A stretch of DNA of 64,000 nucleotides, taken from the NCBI GenBank assembly GCA_001303705.1, contig LJUI01000004.1, positions 14,495 through 78,494 of the forward strand, written 5' to 3'. Source of the DNA: a candidate division TA06 bacterium SM23_40. GTDB lineage: Bacteria; LJUI01; SM1-40. Within the stretch, counting starts at the first letter, position 1, and each line of letters begins with the position of its first letter. The translations under genes were made by a program, and so were the position numbers. The notes beneath the pieces are model-generated. The model was given only the letters and a program-made list of their open reading frames with translations. It had not been told where the DNA came from and did no database searches. Shown piece after piece: positions 15,818-59,876 of the stretch.

Positions 15818-15846
15818 TTGACTTTTCCGGGCACCTGTAATAGGTT
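15818..15846 (+). promoter_or_regulatory. Promoter-like motif TTGACT-N17-TAGGTT (copy 1) ~110 nt upstream of the first gene of the glycosylation cluster
   Basis: Exact hexamers and spacing read from the sequence, followed by GCAAGGG. The same architecture recurs at 21227-21255. Confidence 0.35.
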
Positions 15847-15954
15847 TTGCAAGGGAACGCCTCAAGAGTTCCGGGAGCCCCGTGGGCTTCCTTTTCACTA
15901 TCTGCTGTGGCAGATCTTGTGTTGAGTCGAGGCGGGAGTAACGAGGAGGCGTCT

Positions 15955-16908
15955 ATGCGAGTCCTGGTCACGGGAATCACCGGTTTTGCCGGCAGCCACC
16001 TGGTGGATTATCTATTGACTCTGCCCGATGTACAGGTCTTCGGGATCAAGCGCTGGCGCAGTCGCACAGAAAATATCAAGCACTTCGAGCAGAAAATCGC
16101 AATCTACGAATGTGATCTGAGGGATGCATCTTCGGTGCGCGATATGATCGAGGTGGTGCTGCCGGATCGCATCTTCCATCTCGCGGCACAGAGCTTCGTG
16201 CCGACCTCGTGGAGCGCTCCCACAGAGTCGCTTGTGACCAACGTGATCGGCCAGCTCAACATTTTCGAGGCTGTGCGCCGCATCGGACTGGAGCCCCGCA
16301 TCCAGCTAGCGTGTTCCAGCGAGGAGTATGGGCTTGTCAGTGAGGATGAGATACCTATCAAGGAGACGAACGCGCTGCGTCCCCTCAGCCCCTACGGGGT
16401 AAGCAAGATCGGCCAGGACATGCTGGGGTACCAGTATGCGAGGAGCTACGGGATGTTCATCGTGAGGACGAGAGGGTTCAATCATACTGGGTGTCGGCGT
16501 GGTCCTGTCTTTGTCTGCTCGGATTTCGCCAAACAGGTCGCTGAGATCGAGAAAGGCAGACGGGATCCCGTGATATGGGTCGGGAATCTCGATGCGATCC
16601 GTGACTTTACGGATGTCCGGGACATAGTGCGGGGCTACTGGCTCGCACTCGAGCATTGCGATCCTGGAGATGTGTACAACATCTGTTCCGGTGTGGGACG
16701 CAAGATCCGCGATGTGCTCGACATGCTGATCGGGATGACGTCGAAGTCAGTGGAAGTGAAGGTTGACGAGTGCAGGCTTCGGCCCTCAGATGTGCCCGTT
16801 CTGATCGGAGATAACACCAAATTCAGAGAGAAGACTGGCTGGGAGTTGACGATACCGTTCGAGATCACGCTGAAGGAGATTTACGAGTACTGGCTCGAGC
16901 GTGTGTGA
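15955..16908 (+). CDS. NAD-dependent sugar epimerase/dehydratase, SDR family (GDP-/UDP-sugar 4,6-dehydratase or 4-reductase-like). Start ATG 15955 with RBS AGGAGG.
   Basis: Rossmann motif VLVTGITGFAGSHLVDYL. Catalytic YxxxK PYGVSKIGQD. Confidence 0.8.
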   Translation: MRVLVTGITGFAGSHLVDYLLTLPDVQVFGIKRWRSRTENIKHFEQKIAIYECDLRDASSVRDMIEVVLPDRIFHLAAQSFVPTSWSAPTESLVTNVIGQLNIFEAVRRIGLEPRIQLACSSEEYGLVSEDEIPIKETNALRPLSPYGVSKIGQDMLGYQYARSYGMFIVRTRGFNHTGCRRGPVFVCSDFAKQVAEIEKGRRDPVIWVGNLDAIRDFTDVRDIVRGYWLALEHCDPGDVYNICSGVGRKIRDVLDMLIGMTSKSVEVKVDECRLRPSDVPVLIGDNTKFREKTGWELTIPFEITLKEIYEYWLERV

Positions 16909-16966
16909 TGAAAGACCGCGCCGTCTGGACGCTGTGATGACGTGGGGCGGCTGCCGAGCGAGGACA

Positions 16967-17926
16967 ATGGTTCAAGTACTGGTCACAGGAGCCGAGGGAT
17001 TCGTCGGCGGACATCTTGTACCTCTGCTGCTAGCGCGTGAGAGGCGAGTGAGCGGCACCGCGCTGGACGAGAGGGATGTGGAGAGGATCGAGCGTTTCGA
17101 TGGGGCTCGGGGCGTGGCCTGCGATATCACCGAGAGGGAGGGGATCGCCGGCCTCGTAGAGCGCCTCCTTCCCCGGGAGATCTACCATCTGGCGGCGCAG
17201 AGTTCGTCGGCGTTCTCTTTCTCCGACCCGTATGGCACGATTGCGGACAATGTGATCGGATGTCTGAACGTGCTCGATGCCGCCAGGCAGGCTGCCCAGA
17301 CTGCGCGCGTCCTTATCGTCAGTACGGGAGAGATCTACGGCGTCGGGTCAGAGAACCCGCTTACTGAAGAGGCGCCTGTCGGCCCGATGACTCCTTACGC
17401 GGCGTCGAAGGTGTCGATGGAGCTCGTTGCTCGTCAGTACTGGAAAAGCCTGGGGCTTCCGGTGGTGATCGTCCGCCCCTTTAACCATACAGGGCCTGGT
17501 CAAAGTCCTCGGTTCGCCCTCTCGAGCTTTGCCAAACAGGTCGCCGAGGCGGAACTAGGGCTGAGCTCACCACTGATAGAGGTAGGGAATCTGGACGTAC
17601 GTCGTGACTTCCTCGATGTGAGAGATGTCGTGCGGGGTTACTTGCTCGCTCTCACCGAGGGTGCTCCTGGCGAGATCTACAACATCTCCTCTGGCATTGC
17701 GTCATCGCTTCGCGATGTTCTCGATCTGCTCCTGGAATCGGCGAATGTCTCGATCAAGGTCGAGATCGGCAACGATCGTCTGAGAAAGGTCGACATACCC
17801 GTGCTGTGCGGCGACAGCTCGAAATTCAGAGCTCGCACGGGTTGGAGTCCTCGCTACGAACTCAGGCAGACGCTGCACGATCTTCTGGACTACTGGCGTC
17901 ATGAGCTTCAAGATTCTGGTCGTTAA
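16967..17926 (+). CDS. Second NAD-dependent sugar epimerase/dehydratase, SDR family (Rmd/GDP-4-keto-6-deoxyhexose reductase-like)
   Basis: VLVTGAEGFVGGHLVPLL. YxxxK PYAASKVSMEL. Paralogous to the preceding gene. Confidence 0.8.
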   Translation: MVQVLVTGAEGFVGGHLVPLLLARERRVSGTALDERDVERIERFDGARGVACDITEREGIAGLVERLLPREIYHLAAQSSSAFSFSDPYGTIADNVIGCLNVLDAARQAAQTARVLIVSTGEIYGVGSENPLTEEAPVGPMTPYAASKVSMELVARQYWKSLGLPVVIVRPFNHTGPGQSPRFALSSFAKQVAEAELGLSSPLIEVGNLDVRRDFLDVRDVVRGYLLALTEGAPGEIYNISSGIASSLRDVLDLLLESANVSIKVEIGNDRLRKVDIPVLCGDSSKFRARTGWSPRYELRQTLHDLLDYWRHELQDSGR

Positions 17927-19064
17927 CTGGCAGGACAGAACGAACCCGCTGGCAGGTGGGGCGGAAATACATCTGCACGAGATCTTCGGGCGCCTGGCGA
18001 TGCAGGGTGATGAGGTCTGGCTTCTCTGTTCCTCCTATCCCGGCGCAGCTCCGGTCGAGTATGTCGACGGTATTCGTGTGGTGAGAAGGGGAGGACGGTT
18101 CACGTTCAATATCAGCGCCTTTCTCGCATATTATCGGGAGTTGGCGCACGAACAATTCGACGTTGTCGTCGAAGATATGAACAAGATTCCGTTCTACACT
18201 CCTCTCTATGTGCATGGTCCGGTCCTCGCGATGGTACCGCATCTATTCGGAACGACAGTCTTCCAGGAGGCGATCGTTCCTCTGGCGGTCTATGTCTATC
18301 TCTGGGAGCTGCCGATTCCGCTGATCTATCGCCGCGTGAGGTTTGAGGTCATTTCCGAGAGCACCAAGGAGGATCTCGTTGCCCGCGGGATTCGGTCCGA
18401 TCTGATCCATGTCGTTCACTGCGGGATCGATCGCATGGTTTATCATCCCGGGGGTTCAAGAGACGAAGATCCGCTTATCGTCTATCTGGGCAGGTTCAAG
18501 AAGTACAAGCGCGTAGACCTCCTGCTCAGCGCCATGGTGAAGGTGAAGGAGCGAGTGCCACGCGTGAAGCTTCTCCTGGTCGGCGGTGGAGACCATCTGG
18601 GTGCGCTGAGGGAGCTTGTGGAGCGGCTCGGACTCTCTGACACTGCGTCGTTCACCGGGCACGTGGACGAACAGGAAAAGGTGGGCCATCTCCGTCGCGC
18701 ACACCTCGTGGTCAACACCTCTCCGAAGGAGGGCTGGGGGCTTACCGGCGTCGAGGCGAATGCCTGCGGTACACCTGTGGTTGCATCCGACTCGCCCGGT
18801 CTGCGCGACTCGATCGCCGATGGCAAGAGCGGCCTCCTCGTGCCTCACGGCGACGTGGGTGCGCTCGTCGAGGCCATAGTCCGCATGCTCACAGATGAAG
18901 AACTCAACTGGAGACTGTCGCGGGGAGCGGTCGATTGGGCAGCCAGGTTCAGCTGGGATGCTGCAGCGGAGAGGACCAGACAGCTAATCGAAGAGGTCGT
19001 AGGTAGCGAGAGAGGTTCGGGTCCTCGGGGCCCGGCCGGCAAAACGCCAGGAGCGAGTGTGTGA
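17901..19064 (+). CDS. Glycosyltransferase family 4 (GT-B, retaining)
   Basis: GT4 fold signatures. C-terminal EGWGLTGVEANACGTPVVASDSPGLRD (E-x7-E-like motif). Confidence 0.8.
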   Translation: MSFKILVVNWQDRTNPLAGGAEIHLHEIFGRLAMQGDEVWLLCSSYPGAAPVEYVDGIRVVRRGGRFTFNISAFLAYYRELAHEQFDVVVEDMNKIPFYTPLYVHGPVLAMVPHLFGTTVFQEAIVPLAVYVYLWELPIPLIYRRVRFEVISESTKEDLVARGIRSDLIHVVHCGIDRMVYHPGGSRDEDPLIVYLGRFKKYKRVDLLLSAMVKVKERVPRVKLLLVGGGDHLGALRELVERLGLSDTASFTGHVDEQEKVGHLRRAHLVVNTSPKEGWGLTGVEANACGTPVVASDSPGLRDSIADGKSGLLVPHGDVGALVEAIVRMLTDEELNWRLSRGAVDWAARFSWDAAAERTRQLIEEVVGSERGSGPRGPAGKTPGASV

Positions 19065-20038
19065 GAAAATGGCTCTGGCTCTTCGTCAGGCTCATCGTCA
19101 GTGCGGGTCTGCTCGCCTTTCTGCTGAGCCGTATTGATCTCGCTCGGCTCGTCGAGCTCGTGCGCGGGGCCGATGTCCGCTTTCTTGCCTTACCGTTTAT
19201 ATCGCTCGTTGGGTTCATCATCATCGCTGCTTTTCGCTGGCGGATACTCCTCCGCTCCCTGGAGAAGCGTGTCGTGATGAGGCGGCTCGTCGCGTACTAT
19301 TTTGTCGGCCTCTTCTTCAACAATTTCTTCCCCACCACAGTGGGAGGAGACGCACTGCGGGGGTACTATCTCTCTCGCGAGGGTTCGGCCAAATCCGAGG
19401 CGTTCGCGTCAGTCTTTGTGGAGCGGCTTTCCGGCATTGCCGCGCTGCTGATTCTTGCTCTGGTCGCCTCGGCTCTGATCTATGCGAGCATGGGAGATAG
19501 AACGATCATCCTCTGGGTTTCCCTGGGGTTCGCCATCGCTGGAACGCTGACGCTCCTTCTCTTCAGCGTGTCTGTGGGGGCGGCTATTGAGCGCGGTCTA
19601 GCCCGGGTCACTATTTTCGGATCGGGAGCCAAGCTGACGAGGTTTCTCCGGGCATTGCGGTTCTATCGCGGCCAGAAGAGGGCGGTCGTTGCTGCAGTCG
19701 TCATCTCCTGCATCATTCAGTCGATCCACATCTACGCCAACTATCTCGTGGGGAGGGCCCTGGGTCTGGAGGTCCCACCACAGTACTACTTCCTATTCGT
19801 GCCCATCATCACCGTAGCGGCCATGTTGCCGCTAACGATAAATGGGGTGGGTATCAGAGAAAACGCGTTTGTCTTGCTCTTCGGCCGCGTCGGGATGGGG
19901 GCGGCCGAGGCGACGTCAGTGTCGTTGCTCATATTCGGAACGTGGGTCGTCGTGAGCCTCATTGGCGGCGTGATCTTCCTTTTCGGCCCAGCGACCTGGA
20001 GGGTTGCTCCCGAACCCGGGACACCCCAGCGGCCGTAG
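19061..20038 (+). CDS. Flippase-like polytopic membrane protein of the lysyl-PG-synthase-TM / UPF0104 family (paralog 1). GTGA overlap with the upstream GT4.
   Basis: About 8 predicted TM helices. Motif FFNNFFPTTVGGDALRGYYL typical of the LPG_synthase_TM (MprF flippase domain-like) family. Confidence 0.6.
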   Translation: MRKWLWLFVRLIVSAGLLAFLLSRIDLARLVELVRGADVRFLALPFISLVGFIIIAAFRWRILLRSLEKRVVMRRLVAYYFVGLFFNNFFPTTVGGDALRGYYLSREGSAKSEAFASVFVERLSGIAALLILALVASALIYASMGDRTIILWVSLGFAIAGTLTLLLFSVSVGAAIERGLARVTIFGSGAKLTRFLRALRFYRGQKRAVVAAVVISCIIQSIHIYANYLVGRALGLEVPPQYYFLFVPIITVAAMLPLTINGVGIRENAFVLLFGRVGMGAAEATSVSLLIFGTWVVVSLIGGVIFLFGPATWRVAPEPGTPQRP

Positions 20039-20059
20039 GAGCGATCGGAGAGGGCAGTC

Positions 20060-21016
20060 GTGTCCGCAAGGGGAAATCGGGCGATGGAACAGAATGTCGA
20101 TCGGGTATCGATAATAGTGCCGGCGCTCAATGAAGAGGAGAATGTGCCGGTCGTGGTACAGCGGATCTCCGAGATGATCGAGGAGAGTGGCCTCGACTGT
20201 GAGGCGATTTTGGTCGATGACGGCAGCACCGATGGCACGTATCAGGCTGGATTGCAGGCGCGGGAGCGTTATCCCTTCCTCAAGGTGGTCCGTCATCGGC
20301 GGAACCGCGGTAAGACTGCCGCCCTTCTCACCGGGGCGGAGGAGGGTACAGGCGGGGTGCTCGTGCTGCTTGACGCCGATATGCAGTTCGATCCGGCAGA
20401 GGTGCCGAAGCTCGTAGCAGGGATCGAACAGGGCGCGGATCTCGTCTCCGGCCGGAAGGTGGGCAAGTACGAGAAACGTTTCGTATCGTGGATATACAAT
20501 TTCCTATGTCGACGGCTGTTTCACGTGACGGTGCACGATCTGAACGCGGTCAAGGCATTCAGGCGAGAGGTTCTTGAGGCCCTCGATCTCAGAAAGGACT
20601 GGCATCGGTACCTGGTGGTACTCGCTGCAGAGAAAGGATTCACGATCGCCGAGGAGGAGGTGCAGCTCTATCCTCGTCTGCACGGCGAGACCAAGTACGG
20701 CGGCGTCGGGCGCATCGCAGTCGGTGTGCTCGATCTGATTGCAGTCAAGTTTCAGCTCTCCTTTATGCGCAAGCCGATGCTTCTGTTCGGCGGAACAGGA
20801 GCGTTCCTGCTCTTCTGCGGGATGATCGTCGGCTTCATCTCGCTGTACCTCCGTTTTGTGATGGAGATGGGCTTCCGGCCTCTGTTGTATCTCGTTATTT
20901 TGCTCGTCACCTCCGGGCTCCTGCTCTTCGCGCTGGGATTTCTGGCTGAGGCGATCGCGAACGTCCAGGAGAGGCTGGAGGGAGTTGAGCGGGCGGCGAA
21001 GAAGAGACACCTCTAG
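20060..21016 (+). CDS. GT2 glycosyltransferase, polyprenol-phosphate sugar synthase-like (DPM1/GtrB/ArnC-like) with a C-terminal TM anchor
   Basis: VSIIVPALNEEENV...ILVDDGSTDGT...DADMQ (DxD). Two C-terminal TM helices as in GtrB/ArnC. Alternative start ATG 20084. Confidence 0.8.
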   Translation: MSARGNRAMEQNVDRVSIIVPALNEEENVPVVVQRISEMIEESGLDCEAILVDDGSTDGTYQAGLQARERYPFLKVVRHRRNRGKTAALLTGAEEGTGGVLVLLDADMQFDPAEVPKLVAGIEQGADLVSGRKVGKYEKRFVSWIYNFLCRRLFHVTVHDLNAVKAFRREVLEALDLRKDWHRYLVVLAAEKGFTIAEEEVQLYPRLHGETKYGGVGRIAVGVLDLIAVKFQLSFMRKPMLLFGGTGAFLLFCGMIVGFISLYLRFVMEMGFRPLLYLVILLVTSGLLLFALGFLAEAIANVQERLEGVERAAKKRHL

Positions 21017-21226
21017 CCGCCCGGAGCCGCCAGAGACAGTAATCGTGCTCGGAGCGGGCTCCCGCCCCACAGTCTTCCCTAGAGTATGAATCCCCCTTCA
21101 CAGGCGGACCGATGCCCGATTCACCAGGGCTGCCCCCTGGCGATGCCCCGATCGACCCGTGGTACGGCCGAGGTCTGGGGAGGAATGAACGACGCCCTAT
21201 CTACCCCAGCGGAATGGGTTTTTCCC

Positions 21227-21255
21227 TTGACTTCCCTAGAGATATGGCATAGGTT
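21227..21255 (+). promoter_or_regulatory. Promoter-like motif TTGACT-N17-TAGGTT (copy 2) ~150 nt upstream of ugd
   Basis: Identical hexamers and spacer length to 15818-15846, followed by GGCAAG. Confidence 0.35.
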
Positions 21256-21406
21256 GAGGGGCAAGTGTGAGGGTTCAGCGGTCGGTCTCCGTCCGGATTC
21301 GGGGTGGCCCACCCAGAACGGGTGTGTCGAAGGGGGGGTGGTCTATTCAGAGTCCTCTCCGCATCCTGGTCGAGACGACCGTACCGGCTATTTGACGAGG
21401 TGATCC

Positions 21407-22705
21407 ATGAAGGTCGGAATCATCGGTTCAGGATATGTCGGATTGGTGACCGGCGCGTGTTTCGCTGAAATGGGAAACGATGTCATCTGCGTCGACAATG
21501 ACGAGGCGAAGATCGACATGCTGAAGCGCGGCGAGATGCCGATCTATGAGCCTGGACTCGGCGATCTGGTAGCCCGCAACACAGCAGACGGCAGGCTCGC
21601 GTTCACAACGTCGATAGAGGAGGCAGTTGACGCGTGCATGGTGCTCTTCATCGCCGTTGGCACACCATCAAAGGATGATGGCGAGGCAGATCTTTCTGCC
21701 GTCGAGGCAGTGTCCCGCAAGATCGCGGAGTGCATGAAGGAGTACCGTCTGGTCGTTGAGAAGAGTACGGTGCCGGTGCAGACCGGCGCCTGGATCAGGC
21801 GAACGCTCGAACGGTACAACCCGGACGGGGCTGAGTTCGACGTGGCGTCGAACCCGGAGTTCCTCCGAGAAGGATCGGCGATCGGAGACTTCATGCATCC
21901 GGACCGTGTTGTCATCGGGGTAGAATCGGAACAGGCTCGTACGATATTGCTCGATCTCTATGCGCCCCTCGAGTGTCTCATCGTGGTCACAGATATCGAG
22001 AGCGCCGAGATGATCAAGCACGCGAGTAATTCGTTTCTTGCCATGAAAATATCATTCGTGAATGCAGTGGCTAATATCTGTGAGAGGGCAGGGGCAGATG
22101 TCACTCAGGTTGCCGCTGGGATGGGATATGACCATCGCATCGGCAAGGAATTTCTGCGCGCCGGTGTTGGCTTCGGCGGTATCTGTTTTCCCAAGGACCT
22201 CCAGGCGTTTCGCAAGATAGCTGAGAGTTTCGGATATGATTTCGGGCTGCTCAAAGAGGTTGAGAAGATCAACGAAGAGATGAAGCGGCTGGCGGTGGAG
22301 AAGGTGCGAGAGGCGCTCTGGGTATTGAAGGGAAAGACGGTGGGGGTGCTGTGGCTGTCGTTCAAGCCGAATACCGATGACATGAGGCGGGCGCCTGCCG
22401 TCGACATCATCAATTATCTCCTGGAGGAGGAGGCCACTGTACGGGTGTATGATCCCGTGGCGATGGATAGGGCGAAGACGATACTCAGTGATGTTACGTT
22501 CTGCAAAGATCCGTATGAGGTCTGCGCCGGCAGCGACGCGCTTCTCATTGTGACGGAGTGGGAGGAGTTTGCGAACCTCGATTACGCTCACGTGGCGAAG
22601 CTCATGCTTACCCCGATCCTGATAGACGGCAGGAATATGCTCGACCCCGACAACATGCGGGAACTCGGCTTCGTCTATCGGGGGATTGGCCGTGCGACTC
22701 GATGA
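21407..22705 (+). CDS. ugd: UDP-glucose 6-dehydrogenase
   Basis: MKVGIIGSGYVGLVTGACFAEMGNDVICVD at the N-terminus. Catalytic Cys region GFGGICFPKD. Length 432 aa. Confidence 0.9.
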   Translation: MKVGIIGSGYVGLVTGACFAEMGNDVICVDNDEAKIDMLKRGEMPIYEPGLGDLVARNTADGRLAFTTSIEEAVDACMVLFIAVGTPSKDDGEADLSAVEAVSRKIAECMKEYRLVVEKSTVPVQTGAWIRRTLERYNPDGAEFDVASNPEFLREGSAIGDFMHPDRVVIGVESEQARTILLDLYAPLECLIVVTDIESAEMIKHASNSFLAMKISFVNAVANICERAGADVTQVAAGMGYDHRIGKEFLRAGVGFGGICFPKDLQAFRKIAESFGYDFGLLKEVEKINEEMKRLAVEKVREALWVLKGKTVGVLWLSFKPNTDDMRRAPAVDIINYLLEEEATVRVYDPVAMDRAKTILSDVTFCKDPYEVCAGSDALLIVTEWEEFANLDYAHVAKLMLTPILIDGRNMLDPDNMRELGFVYRGIGRATR

Positions 22706-22780
22706 CTGCCTCACAGGCTCTCTTGCCGCGCGAGGCGACATCATGGGGCTCAATGAACGTGAGGAGGTATTGGAGATCGG

Positions 22781-27827: not shown

Positions 27828-27831
27828 AATA

Positions 27832-28584
27832 ATGCGTGACTACTATCGTCAGGTTTCCGCATCAACGAGGTACCGCGATTCGCGCCGAAAGAAGGCGAAA
27901 CTGATAGCGGACGTAATCGGGGAATTACTTGACGACGCGCAGATGATTATCGATCTGGGGTCGGGAACAGGCCTCATCAAGCAGTACCTCAGTCAGAAGA
28001 TCAAGAAGCCGATTCTGGGCATAGAGGTGGACCCGGATTTCATAGTGCAGAAGGAAGATACCGCTATTGGAACGGTGACCGAACTTCCCGTGAAGGACAA
28101 TTCCGTAGATCTTGTCCTCTGCAACCATCTCTATGAGCACGTGCAGGACCGGTCGGCGCTGTTCTCAGAGATGCGGAGGGTACTCGCCCCGTCGGGAAGG
28201 ATCTATTTGACGGTCGGGAACAGGTTCCAGCTCATGGAGCCACACTACCGCCTGCCGTTTCTCAGTTGGTGTCCTGTATGGCTTGCGAACACCTATCTGC
28301 GGGTAACCAGACGGGGGAGTGACTACCGTGATATACACTTTCCCACGTATGGCGAGCTGGTTCGTGCCGTGCGTGCTCAGTGTCTTGAGGCCGACGATAT
28401 TACGTTCGATGTGCTCTTCCGTCGCAGGCGTCTGATGAGCACACCGCTGAGGAGAGTCCTGTTGTGGGTGCTGCTCCGCCTTCCTGACAGGCTGCGGCGC
28501 GTGCTCCTGAGATGGCTGACACCTCAGTGGTTCTTGCTGCTCCATCATCAGCAGGCTGGCCGAACCATGTGGCACGGATCGTGA
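27832..28584 (+). CDS. Class I SAM-dependent methyltransferase. The ORF track starts at 27658, overlapping the GT4; ATG 27832 is more likely.
   Basis: Motif I IIDLGSGTG. Post-I acidic residue. DLVLCNHLYEHV. Confidence 0.65.
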   Translation: MRDYYRQVSASTRYRDSRRKKAKLIADVIGELLDDAQMIIDLGSGTGLIKQYLSQKIKKPILGIEVDPDFIVQKEDTAIGTVTELPVKDNSVDLVLCNHLYEHVQDRSALFSEMRRVLAPSGRIYLTVGNRFQLMEPHYRLPFLSWCPVWLANTYLRVTRRGSDYRDIHFPTYGELVRAVRAQCLEADDITFDVLFRRRRLMSTPLRRVLLWVLLRLPDRLRRVLLRWLTPQWFLLLHHQQAGRTMWHGS

Positions 28585-28586
28585 GG

Positions 28587-29522
28587 ATGTTCTCTACCGG
28601 ATCATCTGCGCGCTTGCGCGAAAGAGCTGAACGTCGTGTGTCGTGGAGGAGGATCGCCCAGGTACTCCTCGTTTCAGCTGCGGTTATCTATATCGTTCAG
28701 CGCATCATCGCGGACGCGTCGAAGCTGCTGGAATTCGACTGGCGACTGAAGCTGGGATCTCTGGCAGTCTCCTATCTGCTGCTCTTTGCCGCGTTCTCAG
28801 GCTATCCCGTTGTCTGGTGGCTACTATTGAGGGGGATGGGAGAGAGGCTCCCGCTCGGTAAGGCTTTTCGGATCTGGTATGTGTCCAATCTCGGGAGATA
28901 CGTACCCGGTAAGATCTGGCAGATAGTGGGCCGTGTGGAGTTGGCGAAGGATCTGGGTGTGGCTCGATCTACCAGTGCGGCCAGTGTCGTCTACGAGACA
29001 GGATTGATCATTACGAGCGGCATCATTGTGTTTGGAGTTGCCACGGTAGCCTCCAGAGATGCTACACCCTTCTCGTCGGTCTGGCCGATCTTTCTCGTAT
29101 TGCCCTTTGGCATAGTCCTGGCCCATCCGCGAGTCCTCTCCGCCGTGACGAATGTAGTTTTGAGGAAGGTGCGCAAGCCGGAGATAACGTTAGACGTGGG
29201 CCTGCGATGGGCGGCCTCTGTCTTGGCGCTGTACGGGATATTGTGGATCATCCAGGGAGCGGGCTTTTTCTTTCTTGTCCGGTCGTTGACGGCGGTGTCT
29301 TTTCGCTGGTTGCCACAGCTCGTGGGCGTATTTGCTGCAGCATGGATTGCCGGGTTTCTCAGTTTCATCACGCCCGGTGGTCTGGGGGTGAGGGAAGGTG
29401 TCATGACTTTTCTTCTCAGCCTGTACCTACCGCCATCGATCAGTGCTGTCGTTTCCATACTGTCGCGCATCTGGATTACTGTAGGCGAGGTTGTCTGCGC
29501 TCTTGTGTCGTCGAAAGCGTAG
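28587..29522 (+). CDS. Flippase-like membrane protein, LPG-synthase-TM/UPF0104 family (paralog 3)
   Basis: Polytopic. GKIWQIVGRVELAKDLGV and other family-typical segments. ATG 28587 lies just after the MTase stop. Confidence 0.6.
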   Translation: MFSTGSSARLRERAERRVSWRRIAQVLLVSAAVIYIVQRIIADASKLLEFDWRLKLGSLAVSYLLLFAAFSGYPVVWWLLLRGMGERLPLGKAFRIWYVSNLGRYVPGKIWQIVGRVELAKDLGVARSTSAASVVYETGLIITSGIIVFGVATVASRDATPFSSVWPIFLVLPFGIVLAHPRVLSAVTNVVLRKVRKPEITLDVGLRWAASVLALYGILWIIQGAGFFFLVRSLTAVSFRWLPQLVGVFAAAWIAGFLSFITPGGLGVREGVMTFLLSLYLPPSISAVVSILSRIWITVGEVVCALVSSKA

Positions 29523-29641
29523 AGAGGATGACCGTCGAGTGGGACGGGCGTCCTTGGGGCGGATCCTGGGATAAATGAGCGCTCTGTGCGGTAGGAGTGT
29601 ACAGTGGAAGAATCGTTCAGAATGGCCGGAGGGTCTGGGGA

Positions 29642-32062
29642 GTGAGCAAACGGAAGAAAAAGAATGAGCCGCAACGGCGAGCGAGCGGCGCTGGTCGCTC
29701 GGTTGCCTCCGGGGAGCAAGCGACGGATCGGTTGGTCGTCCCTCTGCTCCTTGCGGGCATGGTTGTTGCGATCGTCATTCTATTCCGGGACTTCATCTTC
29801 TCAGATCGCATGCTTCACGGTTCCGATGTCCTCACCTCGGCATACTATTTTCGCGTCTTCGGGAGCGAATATCTTCTCGAGCACCTCCGCTGGCCATCGT
29901 GGAATCCGTACATTTTTGGAGGGCTCCCCTTCGTTGACGCGATGCATAGCGACATATTCTATCCGACGTGGATTCTGCGGCTCCTGGTCCCGGTAGCGAG
30001 GGCGAACGGATACGTTTTCTGTATTCACATATTCCTCTCTGGTGTCGCGACCTTCTGCTTTGTTCGTTCGCTTGGAGTGGGGCGCACAGGTGCAGCCATC
30101 TCCGCGTTGGCGTACATGTTCTCGGCGGGGATAGTCTCGTTCATATTCGAGGGTCACGACGGGAGGCTCATTGTGACCTCAATGTTGCCGGTGGCGCTCC
30201 TATTCCTCCACCGTGGAATGGCCGGCAACGGGGCTTGGAACTACATCGTGGCAGGAGGGGGGGTTGGGCTCGCACTCCTGTCTCCCCAGGTGCAGATGTC
30301 GTACTATCTCGGGATAGCAGTCTCCCTCTTCTTCCTGGTGGAATTGTGGTATCGATGGCAGCGATCGCGTGATCCGAGAAAGGCGGTATCTGCGATTCTG
30401 CTTTTCGTTGCCATGGTGGGGGTCGGGTTGAGCCTCGCGGCGGTTCAGTTCCTCCCGGCGTATTCGTATCTCGAGTACTCTCCCCGGGGTGGTGGAGGGA
30501 GGGGGTACGAGTTCGCCACGTCCTGGTCGATGCCTCCGGAAGAGACGATCAATCTGGTGGCGCCTTCCTTCTCCGGGCTGCTCGAGAGCTATTGGGGGCG
30601 CAATTACTTCAAGCACCACTCGGAATATCTCGGTATCATCACGCTCGTGTTGGCCGGCACAGGAGTGGCACTCAGCCGGCGGAGGCCGTACGCCCGATTC
30701 TTTATCGGTCTGGCGGTCTTCAGTCTGATTATGGCCTGGGGTGGACACACTCCGTTGTATAGAATCGCATACTATATCATACCGAGGATCAAGCAGTTCC
30801 GCGCTCCTTCGCTGATCTTCTACCTTTTCTCGTTCTCGGTGGCTGTGCTCGCGGGATTCGGCCTTGACTCTTTGCACAGTGAAACCGGTGCGAGGGCGAA
30901 GCGGCTCATACGGGGGCTGGCAATCGTTCTCGGTGTCCTGGCAGTCTGCCTGATCGTCTGTGTGGTCGCACGCGAAGGTGTGACCCGATCGATTGCAGAC
31001 GGGGTTATTCCCTATCTCAGGGCTCACTATGCGCCGGAGATGGTTCAGATGAAGGTACGCAGCCTGGGGGCCAACTATTCCGCATTCCTTCTCTCCTTCT
31101 TCAGATCGCTGGTCGTGGCCGGTATCTCGATCGTGATCATCTGGATGCTTGTTGAGAGAAAGATACTTCCCGCGACCGGTCTGTATCTGCTGGGTCCGTT
31201 ACTTCTTTTCGATCTGCTCCTGGTGGATGCGAAGTTCGTCCGGACGGTGCAGCCAGCTGACGAGTTCTTTGCCGAGGACGAAGTGGTGAGATATCTAAAG
31301 CAGGATGACAGCGTATTCAGAGTATTCCCGTACGACCACCGACCTAACGATGACTACCTGATGCTGTTTGGCCTCCAGAGTGTAGGTGGGCACCATGGGA
31401 ATCAGCTCCAACGGTATCAGCGGTTCATCGGGGGTGCAGAGACAGTGATGTTCTACGCCCCCAATCTTCAGTACCGCAACTTCCTCGATCTGCTGAACGT
31501 CAAGTACATCGTAGCATCGAAACGGGTGCCCGCGTCGGGCCTTCCGGTGGCCCACTCTGGTGCTGCATTCAACATCCTCACAAACGAGACTGTGCTCCCA
31601 CGGGTCTTTATCGTGCCGGACTACCGTGTGGTGACAGATGATGATGCGTTGGATCTTCTGAAGCGGTCCGACTTCGATCCCAGTGCTACCGTGCTGCTGA
31701 GCGAGGATCCTGGCTTCACTCCTGTATCGAGTGATACGTCTGTGGGCGAGGCGCTGCTCATCTCGTATGAGCCCGATCGGGTGGTGGTCGAGGCTACCAC
31801 TTCGAGCACGGCTCTGCTTGTCCTGAGCGACAATTACTACCCGATGTGGAGAGCGGTGATCGATGGTCGGCCGACGAAGATCTACAGGGCCTATTACACT
31901 CTCCGGGCCGTGGTGGTGGAGCCGGGCTCGCACGCGGTAGAATTCGTGTACGATTCGATCTATCTCAAGGTCGGTTTCGTATTGAGTCTGGTTGCATCGC
32001 TGATGGTGCTGGCGGCAGGTTGCGTGGTCATTGTACAGTGGCAAAGGAGGCGCAGAGCGTGA
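29642..32062 (+). CDS. YfhO-family large polytopic membrane glycosyltransferase (GT-C-like). Start GTG 29642 with RBS GGAGGG; the ORF track starts at 29597.
   Basis: About 800 aa with 13+ TM helices and a C-terminal extracytoplasmic domain. N-terminal WPSWNPYIFGGLPFVDAMHSDIFYP resembles the YfhO family. Confidence 0.6.
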   Translation: MSKRKKKNEPQRRASGAGRSVASGEQATDRLVVPLLLAGMVVAIVILFRDFIFSDRMLHGSDVLTSAYYFRVFGSEYLLEHLRWPSWNPYIFGGLPFVDAMHSDIFYPTWILRLLVPVARANGYVFCIHIFLSGVATFCFVRSLGVGRTGAAISALAYMFSAGIVSFIFEGHDGRLIVTSMLPVALLFLHRGMAGNGAWNYIVAGGGVGLALLSPQVQMSYYLGIAVSLFFLVELWYRWQRSRDPRKAVSAILLFVAMVGVGLSLAAVQFLPAYSYLEYSPRGGGGRGYEFATSWSMPPEETINLVAPSFSGLLESYWGRNYFKHHSEYLGIITLVLAGTGVALSRRRPYARFFIGLAVFSLIMAWGGHTPLYRIAYYIIPRIKQFRAPSLIFYLFSFSVAVLAGFGLDSLHSETGARAKRLIRGLAIVLGVLAVCLIVCVVAREGVTRSIADGVIPYLRAHYAPEMVQMKVRSLGANYSAFLLSFFRSLVVAGISIVIIWMLVERKILPATGLYLLGPLLLFDLLLVDAKFVRTVQPADEFFAEDEVVRYLKQDDSVFRVFPYDHRPNDDYLMLFGLQSVGGHHGNQLQRYQRFIGGAETVMFYAPNLQYRNFLDLLNVKYIVASKRVPASGLPVAHSGAAFNILTNETVLPRVFIVPDYRVVTDDDALDLLKRSDFDPSATVLLSEDPGFTPVSSDTSVGEALLISYEPDRVVVEATTSSTALLVLSDNYYPMWRAVIDGRPTKIYRAYYTLRAVVVEPGSHAVEFVYDSIYLKVGFVLSLVASLMVLAAGCVVIVQWQRRRRA

Positions 32063-32775
32063 GGACCCTGGTGGTCGTTCCGACATACAACGAAAAGGAA
32101 AACATCGAGCGGATCATCGAGGAGGTGCTGGCCACCAATCCTGAGGTAGAGATATTGGTCGTGGACGATAACTCGCCGGACGGTACAGGGGAGATTATCG
32201 ACCGCCGTTCAGAACAGGAGCCCAGAGTGCACGTCCTCCACCGGGAAGGAAAGCTCGGTCTGGGATCGGCCTATGTTGCGGGCTTCAAGTATGCAATTCG
32301 GGAGGGGTATGACGCCGTATTCGAAATGGATGCCGATTTCTCTCACGATCCGAAGGTGATTCCGGAGTTCCTCAAGAAGCTTGTTGACTACGATCTGGTC
32401 CTCGGGTCGAGGTACCTCGACGGCGTGAGCGTCATCAACTGGCCGATGTCAAGGCTGCTGCTGAGCTATTTCGCCAATATCTACGCTCGAGTTGTCACCG
32501 GCGCTCCGATCCGTGATCTCACGGGTGGATACAAGTGTTTCCGGAGGGAAGTGCTCGAGGCTATCGACCTGGATAAAATCCATTCAGACGGATATGCGTT
32601 CCAGATCGAGATGGACGTCAAGACCTGGAGGAAAGGGTTCAGGGTGCTGGAGATCCCCATCATTTTCGTTGAGCGGGGAGTAGGTACGTCCAAAATGTCG
32701 CGGCGCATCATATGGGAAGCGCTGTGGCTGGTGTGGCGTCTGCGTTTCGCCTCCTTGCTCGGGAGATTGAAGTGA
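32059..32775 (+). CDS. Polyprenol-phosphate mannose/hexose synthase, DPM1/Ppm1-like GT2 (GTG start, GTGA overlap with yfhO-like stop)
   Basis: LVVVPTYNEKENIERIIEEVL...ILVVDDNSPDGTGEII...KLGLGSAYVAGFKYA...MDADFSHDP. Classic DPM1 signature. Confidence 0.85.
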   Translation: MRTLVVVPTYNEKENIERIIEEVLATNPEVEILVVDDNSPDGTGEIIDRRSEQEPRVHVLHREGKLGLGSAYVAGFKYAIREGYDAVFEMDADFSHDPKVIPEFLKKLVDYDLVLGSRYLDGVSVINWPMSRLLLSYFANIYARVVTGAPIRDLTGGYKCFRREVLEAIDLDKIHSDGYAFQIEMDVKTWRKGFRVLEIPIIFVERGVGTSKMSRRIIWEALWLVWRLRFASLLGRLK

Positions 32776-33557
32776 GGGAGTTGGATTTATCGATAGTGAT
32801 CATACACTATCGCATGGTTGATGATCTTCTCAGGTGTCTCGCCTCGATCTATGATCGGAAATGGGACGTCGCGTTCGAAGTACTCATCATCCACAAGCCC
32901 TCCGGTGATCGCTCCCGACAGACGATCGTCGAATCGTATCCAGCTGTGAGAATAGTCGAGACCTGTCGATTCGGCATCGCCTCGATGCGCAACCTGGGGA
33001 TCGCCGGTGCTTCAGGTCGCATTCTGTGTACGCTCGATGCGGACGTCGAAGTTCTTCCCGGCGCGTTCGATCGATTGGTGGAGTTCATGGATACGCACGC
33101 CGGCGCAGCAGGTGCCGGACCGAAGACACTGCGGCCCGATGGTAGCCTCGAGCCGAGCTGTCGGAGGTTCTATACGGTGCGGACGTTATTGGCGCGGCGG
33201 ACACCGCTGCGCCCCCTGATCGGAGGTGACCGGCTCGAACGAGTCCATCTGATGGAAGACTGGGATCACGGCAGCGTGCGTGAGGTCGACTGGGTCGCCG
33301 GAGCATGCATTGTGATGAGCAGGGACGCTGTCGGTGCCATCGGGATGTTCGATGAGTCGTTTGTGTACGGATTTGAGGACGTCGATTGGTGCTATCGAGC
33401 TCGCCTTAGCGGGCGGACGGTCTACTACGTGCCGGATGCGAGTATCATACACCACGTGCAGCGGAGGAGCGCGAGAGGTCTTAACTGGATGACCCTCCAA
33501 CATCTGAAGAGCGCGTTCCACTTCTACCATAAACACCGTCGGCAACGTCGATGGTGA
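32772..33557 (+). CDS. GT2 glycosyltransferase (rhamnosyl/hexosyl transferase-like), GTG start with GTGA overlap
   Basis: LSIVIIHYRMVDDLLRCLASI. DADVEVLPG (DxD). GFEDVDWCYRA motif typical of GT2. Confidence 0.75.
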   Translation: MRELDLSIVIIHYRMVDDLLRCLASIYDRKWDVAFEVLIIHKPSGDRSRQTIVESYPAVRIVETCRFGIASMRNLGIAGASGRILCTLDADVEVLPGAFDRLVEFMDTHAGAAGAGPKTLRPDGSLEPSCRRFYTVRTLLARRTPLRPLIGGDRLERVHLMEDWDHGSVREVDWVAGACIVMSRDAVGAIGMFDESFVYGFEDVDWCYRARLSGRTVYYVPDASIIHHVQRRSARGLNWMTLQHLKSAFHFYHKHRRQRRW

Positions 33558-33574
33558 ACAGAGGCCCTGATTCG

Positions 33575-35023
33575 ATGACTGCGACCTTTCTCGTCCCTCC
33601 GCCGCTGGAGGGGACCCGCGTGCCGGAGCGCGTCTTCGGGTGCAACTACGGGCTGTACCCCATACCCAATATCTTCATGCTTATCGCGGCAGCATTGCTG
33701 GAGAGGAATGGATACCAGGTCTCCGTGGTGGACGCCGCCATCGCCCGCTGGACACGGGAGCGGTTTGCCCGATTCCTCGCCTCCGACAGCAGTTCGGTCT
33801 ACGTCATCTATTCCGTCGAGTTGGCGAAGAAGACGGATCGTCTCGCCTGGAACATGATCCGGGAGGCACGCGGCTCGATACCGGTCATCTTTGCCGGACC
33901 GGCTCCCACGTATGATCCTGATGGGTATCTCCTCGACGAGGAGACGATCATCGTAAGGGGGGAGGTGGAGATGACGATCGATGGGATCGTGGGGGCGATC
34001 GCCCGTGGTTCTTCGTGGGGAGGAATCGCCGGCATCTCCTACATGCATGGATCGCGCGCGATCCATGCACCAAGTCGAGCGCTGATCGAGGACCTGGATT
34101 CGCTGCCCTTCCCTGCCCGGCACCTGGTCGATCGGACGAAGTACTATAACCCGAAACTGGGATTGACGCCCAATACTGCTGTCCTCACGAGCAGGGGCTG
34201 CGGTTACTCATGCATCTACTGCGTACCCTGTTCGCTCAGTTTCGCCAGAGAGCTTGAGTATAAGGCCGCTCACGGCCGGAAACCGCCGGTCCGGCTCCGT
34301 TCGGTCGACAATGTGCTCGCCGAGCTCTCGCAGCTGGCACAGGCTGGTTATCGCAGCGTCAGCTTCCTCGATGACCAGTTCGTCTGGGGGGAGCGGCGCA
34401 CCGTTGCCCTATGTGAGGGAATCGCCAAACTCGGGCTCACGTGGGGATGTCTCGCGCGGGCAGATGTCTTGACAGAACCCATCGTACGGGCGATGGCTGT
34501 GAGTGGCTGCCGGTATGTCGATGTCGGCGTCGAGTCATTCGACCAGCGTGTGCTCGACTTCGTGCGCAAAGACATGACGGTAGGGGAGGCCGAACGCGGT
34601 ATATGCCTGCTCACCGAGCATGGGATCATGGCCAAGTTGAATATTCTGATTGGCGCCGCACCGTTCGAGACGAAGGAGACGTTCCGCAACAACTTCGCGG
34701 CGATCGACCGGCTGAGGCCCAATGCGGTAATGTTCAGTATCTGCACGCCGTTTCCCGGTACGGATCTGTACGAGCTAGCTGTCGAGAATGGGTGGCTTGC
34801 CCGTGACGGGTATCGGGCAGTCGATGTCCAGAAAGAGGCGTTGCTCGATCTGCCCTTCTTGAGCGCCAGTGAACTGGAGAGACTCGCGCATCGGGCCAAC
34901 ATACGCTTTTATCTCAATCCGGCGGTGGTGTGGCGTAACATCCGATCCGCACAGAGTTCGGAGTCGCTCGTCCAGATGTTCTCAGTTCTCCGGGGGAAGC
35001 TTCGTCATTCGGGCGGAACCTAG
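33575..35023 (+). CDS. B12-binding-domain radical SAM enzyme (class B rSAM; alternative start ATG 33551)
   Basis: N-terminal Rossmann-like B12-binding region. rSAM cluster motif RGCGYSCIYCVP (Cx3Cx2C). C-terminal TIM-barrel remainder. Confidence 0.8.
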   Translation: MTATFLVPPPLEGTRVPERVFGCNYGLYPIPNIFMLIAAALLERNGYQVSVVDAAIARWTRERFARFLASDSSSVYVIYSVELAKKTDRLAWNMIREARGSIPVIFAGPAPTYDPDGYLLDEETIIVRGEVEMTIDGIVGAIARGSSWGGIAGISYMHGSRAIHAPSRALIEDLDSLPFPARHLVDRTKYYNPKLGLTPNTAVLTSRGCGYSCIYCVPCSLSFARELEYKAAHGRKPPVRLRSVDNVLAELSQLAQAGYRSVSFLDDQFVWGERRTVALCEGIAKLGLTWGCLARADVLTEPIVRAMAVSGCRYVDVGVESFDQRVLDFVRKDMTVGEAERGICLLTEHGIMAKLNILIGAAPFETKETFRNNFAAIDRLRPNAVMFSICTPFPGTDLYELAVENGWLARDGYRAVDVQKEALLDLPFLSASELERLAHRANIRFYLNPAVVWRNIRSAQSSESLVQMFSVLRGKLRHSGGT

Positions 35024-35037
35024 ACAAGGAAAGCAGC

Positions 35038-36240
35038 ATGGCCACAAGGGTCGACGTGCTCGCCTACCTCATAGCAGCCCTGCTCGCCGCTGTTCTCGTT
35101 ATGATGTTGACGCCAGCGGTGAGACGGCTTGTGATTCGCTTCGGATTGCTTGACAGACCCGCAGACCGCAAAGTGCACACGTCTGCGATCCCCCAACTCG
35201 GCGGGATCGCGATCTACGTGTCGTTTGTCGTCGCCGCGAGCTTGGGCGTTCTCGTTTTGGGCGCCAGAGATCTGATCCCTGGCCTTGGAGCACTGCTCGC
35301 CGCCGGTCTGATTGTTGTGGGCCTTGGCATATATGATGATCTGATGACGGCTTCAGCACGTGTGAAACTGCCGGTTCAGATCATCGCGGCGCTCCTCATC
35401 GTGGGGTTCGGATTCCGGATCCACTCGATAACGAACCCGGTGGGCGGCGTGATCAGGCTGACGTGGATCTCAGTGCCGGTGAGTGTCGTCTGGCTCGTGG
35501 CGTTTATGAACGCGCTCAACCTCGTCGATGGGCTGGACGGTCTGGCGGCCGGTCTCGCAGCCATTGCGGCGGCGACGCTCTTCGTGGGTGGATTGATGTT
35601 CGGGAATCAGTTCTCGAGTGTATTGATGGCTGCCCTGTTTGGTGTCTGTGTAGCCTTCCTCTACTTCAACTTCCACCCCGCGTCGATCTTCATGGGAGAC
35701 ACCGGCAGCCTGTTCCTCGGGCTCGTGTTCGGCACAGTTGGGCTGGCGGAAGGTGGGAAGAGTGTGGCGTTGATCGTCCTCCTCGTTCCGCTCACTGCAC
35801 TGGGTGTGCCCCTCATTGACACCGTGATGGCCGTCTGTCGGCGGACGGCGAGACGTCGCTACATCTTCGCCGGTGACAAGGAGCACATACATCATCGCCT
35901 GCTCGGTCTCGGGTTCTCTCATCGGCAGGTCGTCCTCATACTCTACGGTCTGGCAGCGCTCTTGGGTATGGTGGCATTAGCACTTGCCACGGCAAACCGA
36001 GCAATCATCCTCTTCTTTTCGGCGACGGCAGCCGGGTTCGCTGGATGGGGTGCAGTCCGCCTCAGGATAATCGGTCCGGAGCGGAGGAATCGGATCAGCT
36101 CACAGGCCGGATCTCCTGGCGAGAGCGGGTCGGAACAGGTATCTACACTGCCGGGCAATTCCTCCCGGTCGCCGATGGATGGGGTATTGGCGCGCGGCGA
36201 TCGCCATCCGGGCAGGGGTGAACTGAGGGGAGATGATTGA
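35038..36240 (+). CDS. WecA/TagO/MraY-family polyprenol-phosphate HexNAc-1-phosphate transferase (priming glycosyltransferase)
   Basis: About 10 TM helices. DDLMT. NALNLVDGLDGLAAG. Resembles VF.GD.GS..LG. Confidence 0.85.
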   Translation: MATRVDVLAYLIAALLAAVLVMMLTPAVRRLVIRFGLLDRPADRKVHTSAIPQLGGIAIYVSFVVAASLGVLVLGARDLIPGLGALLAAGLIVVGLGIYDDLMTASARVKLPVQIIAALLIVGFGFRIHSITNPVGGVIRLTWISVPVSVVWLVAFMNALNLVDGLDGLAAGLAAIAAATLFVGGLMFGNQFSSVLMAALFGVCVAFLYFNFHPASIFMGDTGSLFLGLVFGTVGLAEGGKSVALIVLLVPLTALGVPLIDTVMAVCRRTARRRYIFAGDKEHIHHRLLGLGFSHRQVVLILYGLAALLGMVALALATANRAIILFFSATAAGFAGWGAVRLRIIGPERRNRISSQAGSPGESGSEQVSTLPGNSSRSPMDGVLARGDRHPGRGELRGDD

Positions 36241-59873: not shown

Positions 59874-59876
59874 TCT

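Follow-up and report, generated by a model that had tools for sequence, protein, structure and literature searches.

Three stand-alone MprF-flippase-domain proteins as candidate translocators of lipid-linked sugars in a glycan cluster of candidate division TA06

We analysed a 64-kb stretch of the genome of candidate division TA06 bacterium SM23_40 (hereafter the window; contig LJUI01000004.1 of assembly GCA_001303705.1, positions 14,495 to 78,494) and, within it, a large glycan cluster encoding three membrane proteins of the MprF-flippase-domain family PF03706 (LPG-synthase-TM or UPF0104). Their genes are interspersed with those of glycosyltransferase family 2 (GT2) enzymes resembling polyprenyl-phosphate sugar synthases and of two polytopic glycosyltransferases of the GT-C type. 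In the explanation we favour, with a probability of roughly 55%, the PF03706 proteins translocate lipid-linked sugars for the GT-C enzymes within one operon-like envelope-glycan or glycolipid cluster. An earlier note on this DNA had proposed a repeated triad of synthase, flippase and GT-C transferase, an interpretation that is partly supported by the results presented here.

Families were assigned by scanning the open reading frames (ORFs) of the window with Pfam and NCBIfam profiles at curated cut-offs; gene starts were mostly taken from the public gene calls of the contig. Every gene between 15.8 and 40.3 kb lies on the + strand, with short gaps or 4-nucleotide (nt) overlaps between genes. 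The part of the cluster that holds the three PF03706 genes, which lie inside 10.5 kb, is organised as follows.

17901..19064, + strand: GT4a, family 4 glycosyltransferase (Pfam Glycos_transf_1, 4.3e-39)
19061..20038, + strand: PF03706a, stand-alone MprF-flippase-domain protein (Pfam LPG_synthase_TM, 9.2e-50; TIGR00374, 4.9e-28)
20084..21016, + strand: GT2a, polyprenyl-phosphate sugar synthase-like, ArnC/GtrB architecture (PDB ArnC 9hwj, GtrB 5ekp)
21017-21406: gap of 390 nt, the only sizeable one in the cluster
21407..22705, + strand: Ugd, UDP-glucose 6-dehydrogenase (NCBIfam TuaD, 3.1e-168)
22781..24655, + strand: GT-C transferase, ArnT/PMT_2-like (Pfam PMT, 1.7e-4, sub-threshold; homologues; fold)
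24652..25548, + strand: GT2b, polyprenyl-phosphate sugar synthase-like, AglJ/ArnC type (NCBIfam AglJ, 1.4e-41)
25600..26625, + strand: PF03706b, second MprF-flippase-domain protein (Pfam, 3.3e-36)
26622..27827, + strand: GT4b, family 4 glycosyltransferase (Pfam Glycos_transf_1, 4.7e-47)
27832..28584, + strand: class I S-adenosylmethionine (SAM) methyltransferase (Pfam Methyltransf_11, 2.5e-17)
28587..29522, + strand: PF03706c, third and most divergent MprF-flippase-domain protein (Pfam, 2.2e-12)
29642..32062, + strand: YfhO-family GT-C transferase (Pfam YfhO, 9.3e-10, C-terminus only)
32059..32775, + strand: GT2c, DPM1-like catalytic domain without transmembrane helices (PDB 5mlz, 5.3e-34)

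All three flippase-domain proteins scored above the PF03706 gathering cut-off of 33.4 bits (170.2, 125.7 and 47.5 bits for PF03706a, b and c, respectively). The TIGR00374 cut-off was passed by PF03706a and b and missed by PF03706c; among the relevant NCBIfam models this generic family was the only assignment, and the HpnL-type model matched none of the three. Hydropathy peaks indicated about 7-8 transmembrane helices in each paralogue, with 7 hydrophobic helices in PF03706a. Searching the PDB by sequence with the GT-C, YfhO and PF03706 proteins gave no matches, and fold searches were therefore needed for the GT-C and PF03706 proteins. PF03706a was the paralogue modelled. Its AlphaFold model (predicted local distance difference test, pLDDT, 89) matched six MprF structures with E<0.01 and no other PDB entry; these matches had a probability of 1.0 and TM-scores of 0.55-0.64, and the next match had a TM-score of 0.22. 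As modelled, PF03706a has the fold of the MprF transport domain and resembles no other PDB structure. Residues P91, G264 and E267 (PF03706a numbering) are invariant in a 24-sequence PF03706 alignment; the functional residues described for S. aureus MprF are D71, R112 and E206 (PMC4324311). The three paralogues are mutually 18-24% identical (b 24% and c 18% to PF03706a), indicating paralogues of ancient origin that were brought together in this cluster, rather than recent duplicates. Most prokaryotes that encode a PF03706 domain reportedly have a single copy (PplT preprint). Verbatim copies of the PF03706a protein were found on assembly GCA_001304185.1 (TA06 bacterium SM1_40) and on several metagenome contigs.

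GT2a aligned end to end with ArnC (PDB 9hwj, 1.3e-24) and GtrB (5ekp). GT2b likewise gave full-length alignments with ArnC and GtrB, and its PDB matches included ArnC (4.2e-17) and dolichol-phosphate mannose synthase (DPMS; 1.6e-13). A C-terminal two-helix membrane hairpin is present in both proteins. GT2c corresponds to the catalytic domain only, has no transmembrane segment, and finds its best solved relative in the P. furiosus DPMS (5mlz, 5.3e-34). Judged by sequence, the best solved relatives of GT2a, GT2b and GT2c are polyprenyl-phosphate glycosyltransferases (ArnC, DPMS and GtrB).

The GT-C protein at 22781-24655 narrowly missed the Pfam PMT cut-off (21.7 versus 22.7 bits), and its homologues are PMT_2/ArnT/RgtA-like. 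In an alignment of 32 sequences, the GGDNAxY loop right after its first transmembrane helix is invariant, including the aspartate D123 in this loop. Its model (pLDDT 86) had only GT-C enzymes among the top 36 PDB fold matches, including STT3, AglB, PglB, ArnT, ALG9/12, DPY19, AftA/B and Pmt4, and the GT-C fold is confirmed at the level of the model. The protein at 29642-32062 had 450 full-length homologues, with PF09586 annotated on most among those listed, and these homologues confirmed its membership of the YfhO family. The inventory proposed in the earlier note (three synthase-like GT2s, the last DPM1-like, three UPF0104 proteins and two GT-C transferases) was therefore recovered. The Pfam and NCBIfam scans also returned the other enzymes it had named, namely two GT4s, a fourth GT2, two short-chain dehydrogenases/reductases (SDRs), Ugd, a SAM methyltransferase, a B12-radical SAM enzyme and WecA.

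The repeating module described in the same note is loose. Gene order differs around each flippase-domain gene: GT4-PF03706a-GT2a-Ugd-GT-C for the first, GT-C-GT2b-PF03706b-GT4b for the second and methyltransferase-PF03706c-YfhO-GT2c for the third. Two GT-C genes serve three supposed triads, each with its own synthase and PF03706 protein. GT2a lies 45 nt downstream of PF03706a, GT2b lies 51 nt upstream of PF03706b, and 4-nt overlaps join GT4a to PF03706a, GT-C to GT2b, PF03706b to GT4b and YfhO to GT2c.

The window ORFs that were scanned included no GtrA, ArnE/F (SMR), MATE, Wzx or Wzy protein and no ABC glycan exporter. The position held by a GtrA-, SMR- or MATE-type flippase in three-component systems is therefore vacant among these ORFs, which agrees with the suggestion that the small GtrA/ArnEF-type protein is replaced here. 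A 105-amino-acid (aa) ORF at 21086-21403 was considered as a small flippase and ruled out; it has no transmembrane segment and no family match, and is not called publicly. The gap in which it lies (21017-21406) had no Rfam match and no gene called in public copies of the contig, and could contain an internal promoter; Rfam, promoter and terminator scans of the region returned nothing relevant.

The association of these families was also found in other genomes. One genome per species was scanned with an 11-sequence PF03706 alignment, which gave at least 523 related loci; the best 80 were analysed, with ORFs called simply and classified by phmmer against the window proteins. Thirty-eight loci had at least 5 kb on both flanks. 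Within 5 kb of PF03706, a GT-C candidate was present in 30 of these 38 (a tally that rests on size, hydropathy and family counts), a polyprenyl-phosphate-sugar-synthase-like GT2 in 27, and both together in 21; all 38 had at least one GT2, GT-C or GT4 nearby. When 40 large polytopic neighbours were compared with Pfam, 24 were TMEM260-like (DUF2723, mostly with TPR repeats) and 13-14 matched PMT_2/PMT, so that about 37-38 of these 40 membrane neighbours can be regarded as GT-C enzymes. The density of GT2 genes was 0.21/kb at less than 1 kb from PF03706 and 0.007/kb at 5-8 kb, and that of GT-C genes was 0.20/kb and 0.011/kb, respectively, an 18-28 fold drop with distance; GT4 density went from 0.14/kb to 0.022/kb. 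Distant homologues of PF03706a abutted a GT2 of about 300 aa in 4/4 cases (NC10, WOR-3 and two others), and the NC10 locus consists of PMT-GT2-PF03706-PAP2 amid unrelated housekeeping genes. One GT-C homologue (P0075) is solitary, without related neighbours, and linkage with PF03706 is therefore not universal. Collectively, these comparisons indicated that the GT2/GT-C link to PF03706 holds beyond the window locus; the PF03706 assignments of the earlier note stand, and the three families co-occur elsewhere.

Three layouts recurred. Desulfobacterota and NC10 loci had the order PAP2 - PMT_2 - GT2 - PF03706. In Eisenbacteria, Krumholzibacteria and relatives, a GT4a orthologue (sometimes preceded by a methyltransferase) was followed by PF03706, a TMEM260-like GT-C, in some cases an SDR, and a GT2a-like gene. 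In Calditrichota, a TMEM260-like GT-C and PF03706 were followed at some distance by a GT2c orthologue (300-356 bits, 2-4 kb from PF03706). The four-gene PAP2/PMT_2/GT2/PF03706 cassette was seen at L010 4759-8957, L006 4477-8608 and about a dozen similar loci; its combination of a PAP2 phosphatase with a PMT_2/ArnT-like GT-C is reminiscent, by analogy, of lipid A dephosphorylation followed by glycosylation. Bacterial TMEM260-like GT-C genes lay directly beside PF03706 in Calditrichota, Eisenbacteria and Krumholzibacteria (for example L036 5319-7994 and L029 9061-11643). The human homologue TMEM260 is a protein O-mannosyltransferase.

WOR-3-type loci carried a compact cassette of a GT2a orthologue, PF03706 and Ugd (L048 7079-11144, L037 3853-7918 and L008 6136-9281); neither a GT4 nor a GT-C candidate lies within three genes of it. 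In L048 and L037, Ugd is followed by a UDP-glucuronate decarboxylase (UDP-xylose synthase; 2e-105 to human UXS1 in L048). These homologies suggest a pathway for a polyprenyl-phosphate-xylose or polyprenyl-phosphate-glucuronate carrier. The methyltransferase-PF03706-YfhO order was kept in L092 (4431-8460) and L093 (4158-8487), with a close variant in L091 (8717-12842); this trio spans WOR-3 and other uncultured lineages, sometimes without a GT2 nearby. In a sister genome (about 65% identity) the entire cluster is present in the same order, including the PorZ-like, acetyltransferase and aminotransferase genes. PF03706a of the sister genome overlaps GT2a by 20 nt and is set apart from GT4a. A KSB1 bacterium (L087 7872-9722) encodes PF03706 with a C-terminal fusion that is, by its repeat motif, hexapeptide-repeat (LbH) acyltransferase-like.

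The cluster extends past 36240 to about 40331. Its remaining genes, on either side of those listed above, are the following.

15955..16908, + strand: SDR1, nucleoside-diphosphate (NDP)-sugar dehydratase/reductase (Pfam GDP_Man_Dehyd, 6.6e-80; ORF opens at 15847)
16967..17926, + strand: SDR2, second NDP-sugar SDR (Pfam GDP_Man_Dehyd, 4.3e-65; PDB 2pk3, 3.4e-68)
32712..33557, + strand: GT2d, ordinary soluble GT2, start uncertain (Pfam Glycos_transf_2, 9.7e-15)
33551..35023, + strand: B12-binding radical SAM enzyme (Pfam Radical_SAM and B12-binding; AprD4, 5.4e-37; HpnJ, 3.9e-52, far below cut-off)
35038..36240, + strand: WecA/MraY-family polyprenyl-phosphate N-acetylhexosamine-1-phosphate transferase (Pfam Glycos_transf_4, 2.4e-37; TIGR02380 wecA, 1.8e-36)
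36420..38498, + strand: PorZ-like beta-propeller protein, type IX secretion (NCBIfam T9SS_PorZ, 1e-32, below cut-off)
38540..39142, + strand: NeuD/PglD-type hexapeptide sugar acetyltransferase (Pfam Hexapep; TIGR03570, 4.4e-31)
39189..40331, + strand: DegT-family sugar aminotransferase (Pfam DegT, 4.2e-122; ArnB, 2.3e-102, and PseC, 6.7e-96, both below cut-off)

SDR1 and SDR2 (15955-17926) are most like GDP-6-deoxy-D-lyxo-4-hexulose reductase and GDP-mannose 4,6-dehydratases, the best PDB relative of SDR1 being the former enzyme (2pk3, 9e-88). From these similarities, the pair probably makes a GDP-6-deoxyhexose rather than acting on the UDP-glucuronate made by Ugd. Parts of a type IX secretion system flank and interrupt the glycan cluster between 36420 and 45349. 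The PorZ-like gene and those listed after it are followed by genes for a TPR and SLT protein (40341-42857), an NHL-repeat protein with a FlgD_ig C-terminal domain (42861-44252) and a PorV/PorQ-family protein that passed its NCBIfam cut-off (44303-45349). The order from the PorZ-like to the TPR and SLT gene is kept in the sister genome (L151). In Porphyromonas, anionic lipopolysaccharide (A-LPS) is the anchor of type IX cargo, and by analogy this arrangement suggests that the cluster glycan may serve as a cargo anchor. Directly after the PorV-family gene, a 188-aa ORF (45531-46097) has six predicted membrane helices and no family match. A second envelope-related group at 57286-63543 comprises an apolipoprotein N-acyltransferase, a FemAB-like acetyltransferase, an amidohydrolase, an unassigned 452-aa ORF and a WecB-type UDP-GlcNAc 2-epimerase. 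Directly upstream of the cluster, a Ser/Thr kinase of 1200 aa that carries AAA_16 and TPR domains (12128-15730), and whose position is kept in the sister genome (L150), is preceded by a sigma-54 activator with a GAF domain.

From the protein families, folds, gene order and conserved neighbourhoods described above, we infer the lipid substrates, their translocation by PF03706, the pairing of partners and the acceptor as follows. At the cytoplasmic face, GT2a, GT2b and GT2c would load single sugars from nucleotide sugars, one of them probably UDP-glucuronate supplied by Ugd, onto polyprenyl phosphate, and WecA, GT4a, GT4b and GT2d would assemble a lipid-linked acceptor. The three PF03706 proteins would act as energy-independent translocators, that is MprF-type scramblases, bringing lipid-linked sugars to the outer leaflet and filling the slot of GtrA, ArnE/F or MATE in known three-component systems. 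Each probably draws its specificity from the enzyme to which it is coupled rather than from a binding site of its own. At the outer face, the ArnT/PMT_2-like and YfhO GT-C enzymes would transfer the sugars onto the acceptor, for which the WecA-primed glycan, a lipid-A-like molecule and the neighbouring type IX secretion cargo are candidates. This three-stage scheme is consistent with the scanned ORFs including no other flippase gene and with a linkage seen across phyla. In agreement with it, purified P. aeruginosa MprF has been described as a promiscuous scramblase that owes its physiological role to the enzyme fused to it (PMC11980842). The flippases of known three-component systems already come from families unrelated to one another (GtrA, SMR and MATE; PMC11127046), and a fourth family in this slot is thus plausible. 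The switch of coupling in the sister genome suits a promiscuous translocator that serves whichever enzyme adjoins it.

Several points weigh against this explanation. The experimental support for PF03706 proteins concerns glycerolipids and is direct for MprF and aminoacyl-phosphatidylglycerol only (PplT preprint; PMC11980842). We found no experiment showing a PF03706 protein moving a polyprenyl-phosphate sugar, and for the flippases of glucosaminyl-phosphatidylglycerol (GlcN-PG; GpgSDF; PMC12713373) and of the C. difficile glycolipid (HexSDF) the role is itself only predicted. The 80 loci are the top-scoring ones, phylogenetically clustered and not independent, and both the ORF calls and the GT-C counts made on them are rough. 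Genes outside the 64-kb window could supply a GtrA-like or another flippase. The conserved neighbours of PF03706c lack a GT2 in 2/3 loci (L092 and L093). Relatives of PF03706b occur in mixed contexts, with an amine oxidase and ABC-2 or with NlpC/P60, in metagenomes and mostly on short contigs. Lastly, PF03706a and PF03706b each share 4 nt with a GT4 gene, and in loci of related phyla (Eisenbacteria, Krumholzibacteria, Latescibacteria and Omnitrophota) the immediate partner of PF03706a is a GT4a orthologue. PF03706 is coupled to GT4 and methyltransferase genes as tightly as to GT2. GT2 is therefore not the sole candidate partner, as GT4a adjoins PF03706a orthologues and the methyltransferase and YfhO genes adjoin PF03706c.

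These overlaps lead to the strongest alternative, to which we give about half the weight of our favoured explanation or slightly less. Here the PF03706 proteins would flip the products of the adjacent GT4s (acceptors anchored on glycerolipid or polyprenyl diphosphate) and not those of the GT2s, and the GT2-made polyprenyl-phosphate sugars would reach the outer face spontaneously or along some other path. GpgS/GpgF in Pseudomonas, HexS/HexF in C. difficile and the putative mycobacterial phosphatidylinositol mannoside (PIM) flippase would be its models. The GT4a/PF03706a and PF03706b/GT4b overlaps argue for it, as do the GT4a orthologues (phmmer 300-430 bits) that immediately precede those of PF03706a in many of 78 loci, among them loci of the phyla just named; overall, a GT4 was adjacent to PF03706 in 19/78 loci. 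Fusions of GT-B enzymes to the PF03706 domain have been listed (PplT preprint), and in GpgSDF (PMC12713373) and HexSDF a glycolipid synthase is accompanied by a PF03706-type protein with a predicted flippase role. Nevertheless, many loci have overlapping GT2 and PF03706 genes with no adjacent GT4, archaeal AglD fuses a GT2 and not a GT4 to PF03706 (PMC5898192), and PF03706a of the sister genome is coupled to GT2a instead of GT4a. The absence of a deacetylase and the score of both GT4s against the GpgS model (about 50 bits for a cut-off of 480) also speak against it. In line with what the mycobacterial PIM and lipoarabinomannan pathway would demand, the translocators may carry both GT4-made acceptors and GT2-made donors.

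It is improbable that the PF03706 proteins are general phospholipid-homeostasis translocators comparable to E. coli YbhN, or structural partners, with a position that reflects co-regulation. YbhN has been linked to cardiolipin synthesis and not to glycosylation (PplT preprint; PMC11980842), and the unrelated contexts of PF03706b relatives would suit such a role. Three diverged copies in one operon, translational coupling and the 18-28 fold fall in GT2/GT-C density across phyla are hard to reconcile with it. A distant PF03706b-like subfamily lies beside a flavin amine-oxidase/desaturase-like gene (L127, L129, L131, L133-L136, L139 and L143), with an ABC-2-type permease in several of these loci, and may concern another lipid class. 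Less probable still is that at least one PF03706 protein exports a WecA-primed polyprenyl-diphosphate oligosaccharide in place of a Wzx or ABC exporter: the locus combines WecA with two GT4s and a soluble GT2, the scanned ORFs include no Wzx, Wzy or ABC exporter, and O-antigen-ligase fusions to PF03706 have been listed (PplT preprint), yet there is no precedent, the exporter may sit outside the window, and elsewhere PF03706 is conserved together with monosaccharide-carrier synthases and GT-C enzymes rather than with WecA.

Translocation by PF03706 may be put in wider terms, although we regard the following extension as doubtful. Stand-alone PF03706 proteins might be the missing translocators of polyprenyl-phosphate sugars and glycolipid acceptors for GT-C enzymes across many phyla, with subfamilies wired to ArnT/PMT_2-like, TMEM260-like or YfhO enzymes; the TA06 trio would feed a multi-sugar line at the outer face making an anchor or glycan for the adjacent type IX components (PorZ-like and PorV-family). 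The crossing of the membrane by polyprenyl-phosphate sugars is among the least documented steps of envelope glycosylation, and even the GtrA, SMR-type and MATE flippases are proposals that have yet to receive direct evidence (PMC11127046). A widespread and tightly coupled PF03706 partner provides concrete candidates in bacteria, some of them in cassettes of only two to four genes. If true, this would widen the range of the MprF transport domain from phospholipids to sugar carriers and annotate thousands of genes for "flippase-like domain-containing" proteins. The central proposal dates back ten years, and which partner belongs to which protein is ambiguous; for the locus alone, what is gained is a reliable annotation of an extensive glycan cluster from an uncultured phylum.

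Among known systems, the closest in function are the three-component systems (GtrB/GtrA/GtrV, ArnC/ArnE-F/ArnT, CsbB/GtcA/YfhO, PgfS/PgfM1 and the pentofuranose system with a MATE protein; PMC11127046). Similarly to these, the TA06 cluster encodes hairpin GT2 synthases together with GT-C enzymes, and both YfhO and ArnT-like types are present. Unlike these, it has PF03706 in the place of the flippase, three synthases and three PF03706 proteins for two GT-C enzymes, and interleaved GT4, methyltransferase and radical-SAM genes. A true Arn pathway was ruled out: scores were 99 versus 529 bits for the ArnC model and 342 versus 631 bits for the ArnB model, and there is no ArnA formyltransferase/decarboxylase, ArnD or ArnE/F. 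In the hopanoid hpnI-J-K-L cassette, hpnL encodes a PF03706 protein beside a GT2 and a B12-radical-SAM enzyme. Membership of that cassette was also ruled out, as the radical SAM enzyme reached 177.7 bits for an HpnJ cut-off of 577.6 and no HpnL match was obtained.

GpgSDF (Pseudomonas GlcN-PG; PMC12713373) and HexSDF place a GT4-type synthase beside a predicted UPF0104/MprF-like flippase, as here. They differ in that the present cluster has no deacetylase and does encode polyprenyl-phosphate sugar synthases and GT-C enzymes; with both GT4s at about 50 bits on the GlcN_PG_synth model (cut-off 480), membership was ruled out. Since curated cut-offs were missed and key genes are absent, the locus falls outside the Arn, GpgSDF and hopanoid hpn systems. 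With MprF itself it shares the membrane domain, by profile and fold, and the coupling of a lipid-modifying enzyme to a translocator, but no aminoacyl-phosphatidylglycerol synthase domain is present and the likely substrates are sugar-carrying lipids. In the mycobacterial PIM, lipomannan (LM) and lipoarabinomannan (LAM) pathway, cytoplasmic GT4s build a glycolipid, a DPM1-like GT2 makes polyprenyl-phosphate-mannose and periplasmic GT-C enzymes extend the glycolipid. To our knowledge, no flippase of this pathway has been identified. The likeness is drawn at the level of pathway logic only.

The nearest precedent for the arrangement is archaeal. Makarova, Galperin and Koonin described in 2015 a neighbourhood of PF03706 (arCOG00899), a PMT/STT3-like GT-C and an AglD-like GT2, pointed out that AglD joins a GT2 and PF03706 in one protein, and proposed PF03706 as the flippase of glycosylation pathways (PMC5898192). 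The COG0392 entry is accordingly named "Predicted membrane flippase AglD2/YbhN" (quoted in PMC12713373), and fusions of the PF03706 domain to GT-A, GT-B, methyltransferase and O-antigen-ligase domains have been listed (PplT preprint). The statement of the earlier note that this pairing is not a characterised system is therefore right as regards experiments but not as regards the idea. In the literature searched, we found no paper on bacterial triads, on YfhO or TMEM260-like pairings with PF03706, or on experimental tests. The same three families are linked in archaea and here. Whereas GT2 and PF03706 are often fused in archaea, no AglD-type fusion occurs at the TA06 locus, where the genes are separate, bacterial and present in three copies within one cluster, and the GT-C types differ (YfhO here and TMEM260-like in related phyla). 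Collectively, the locus is a bacterial, multi-copy and unfused form, well supported by comparative data, of a previously predicted arrangement.

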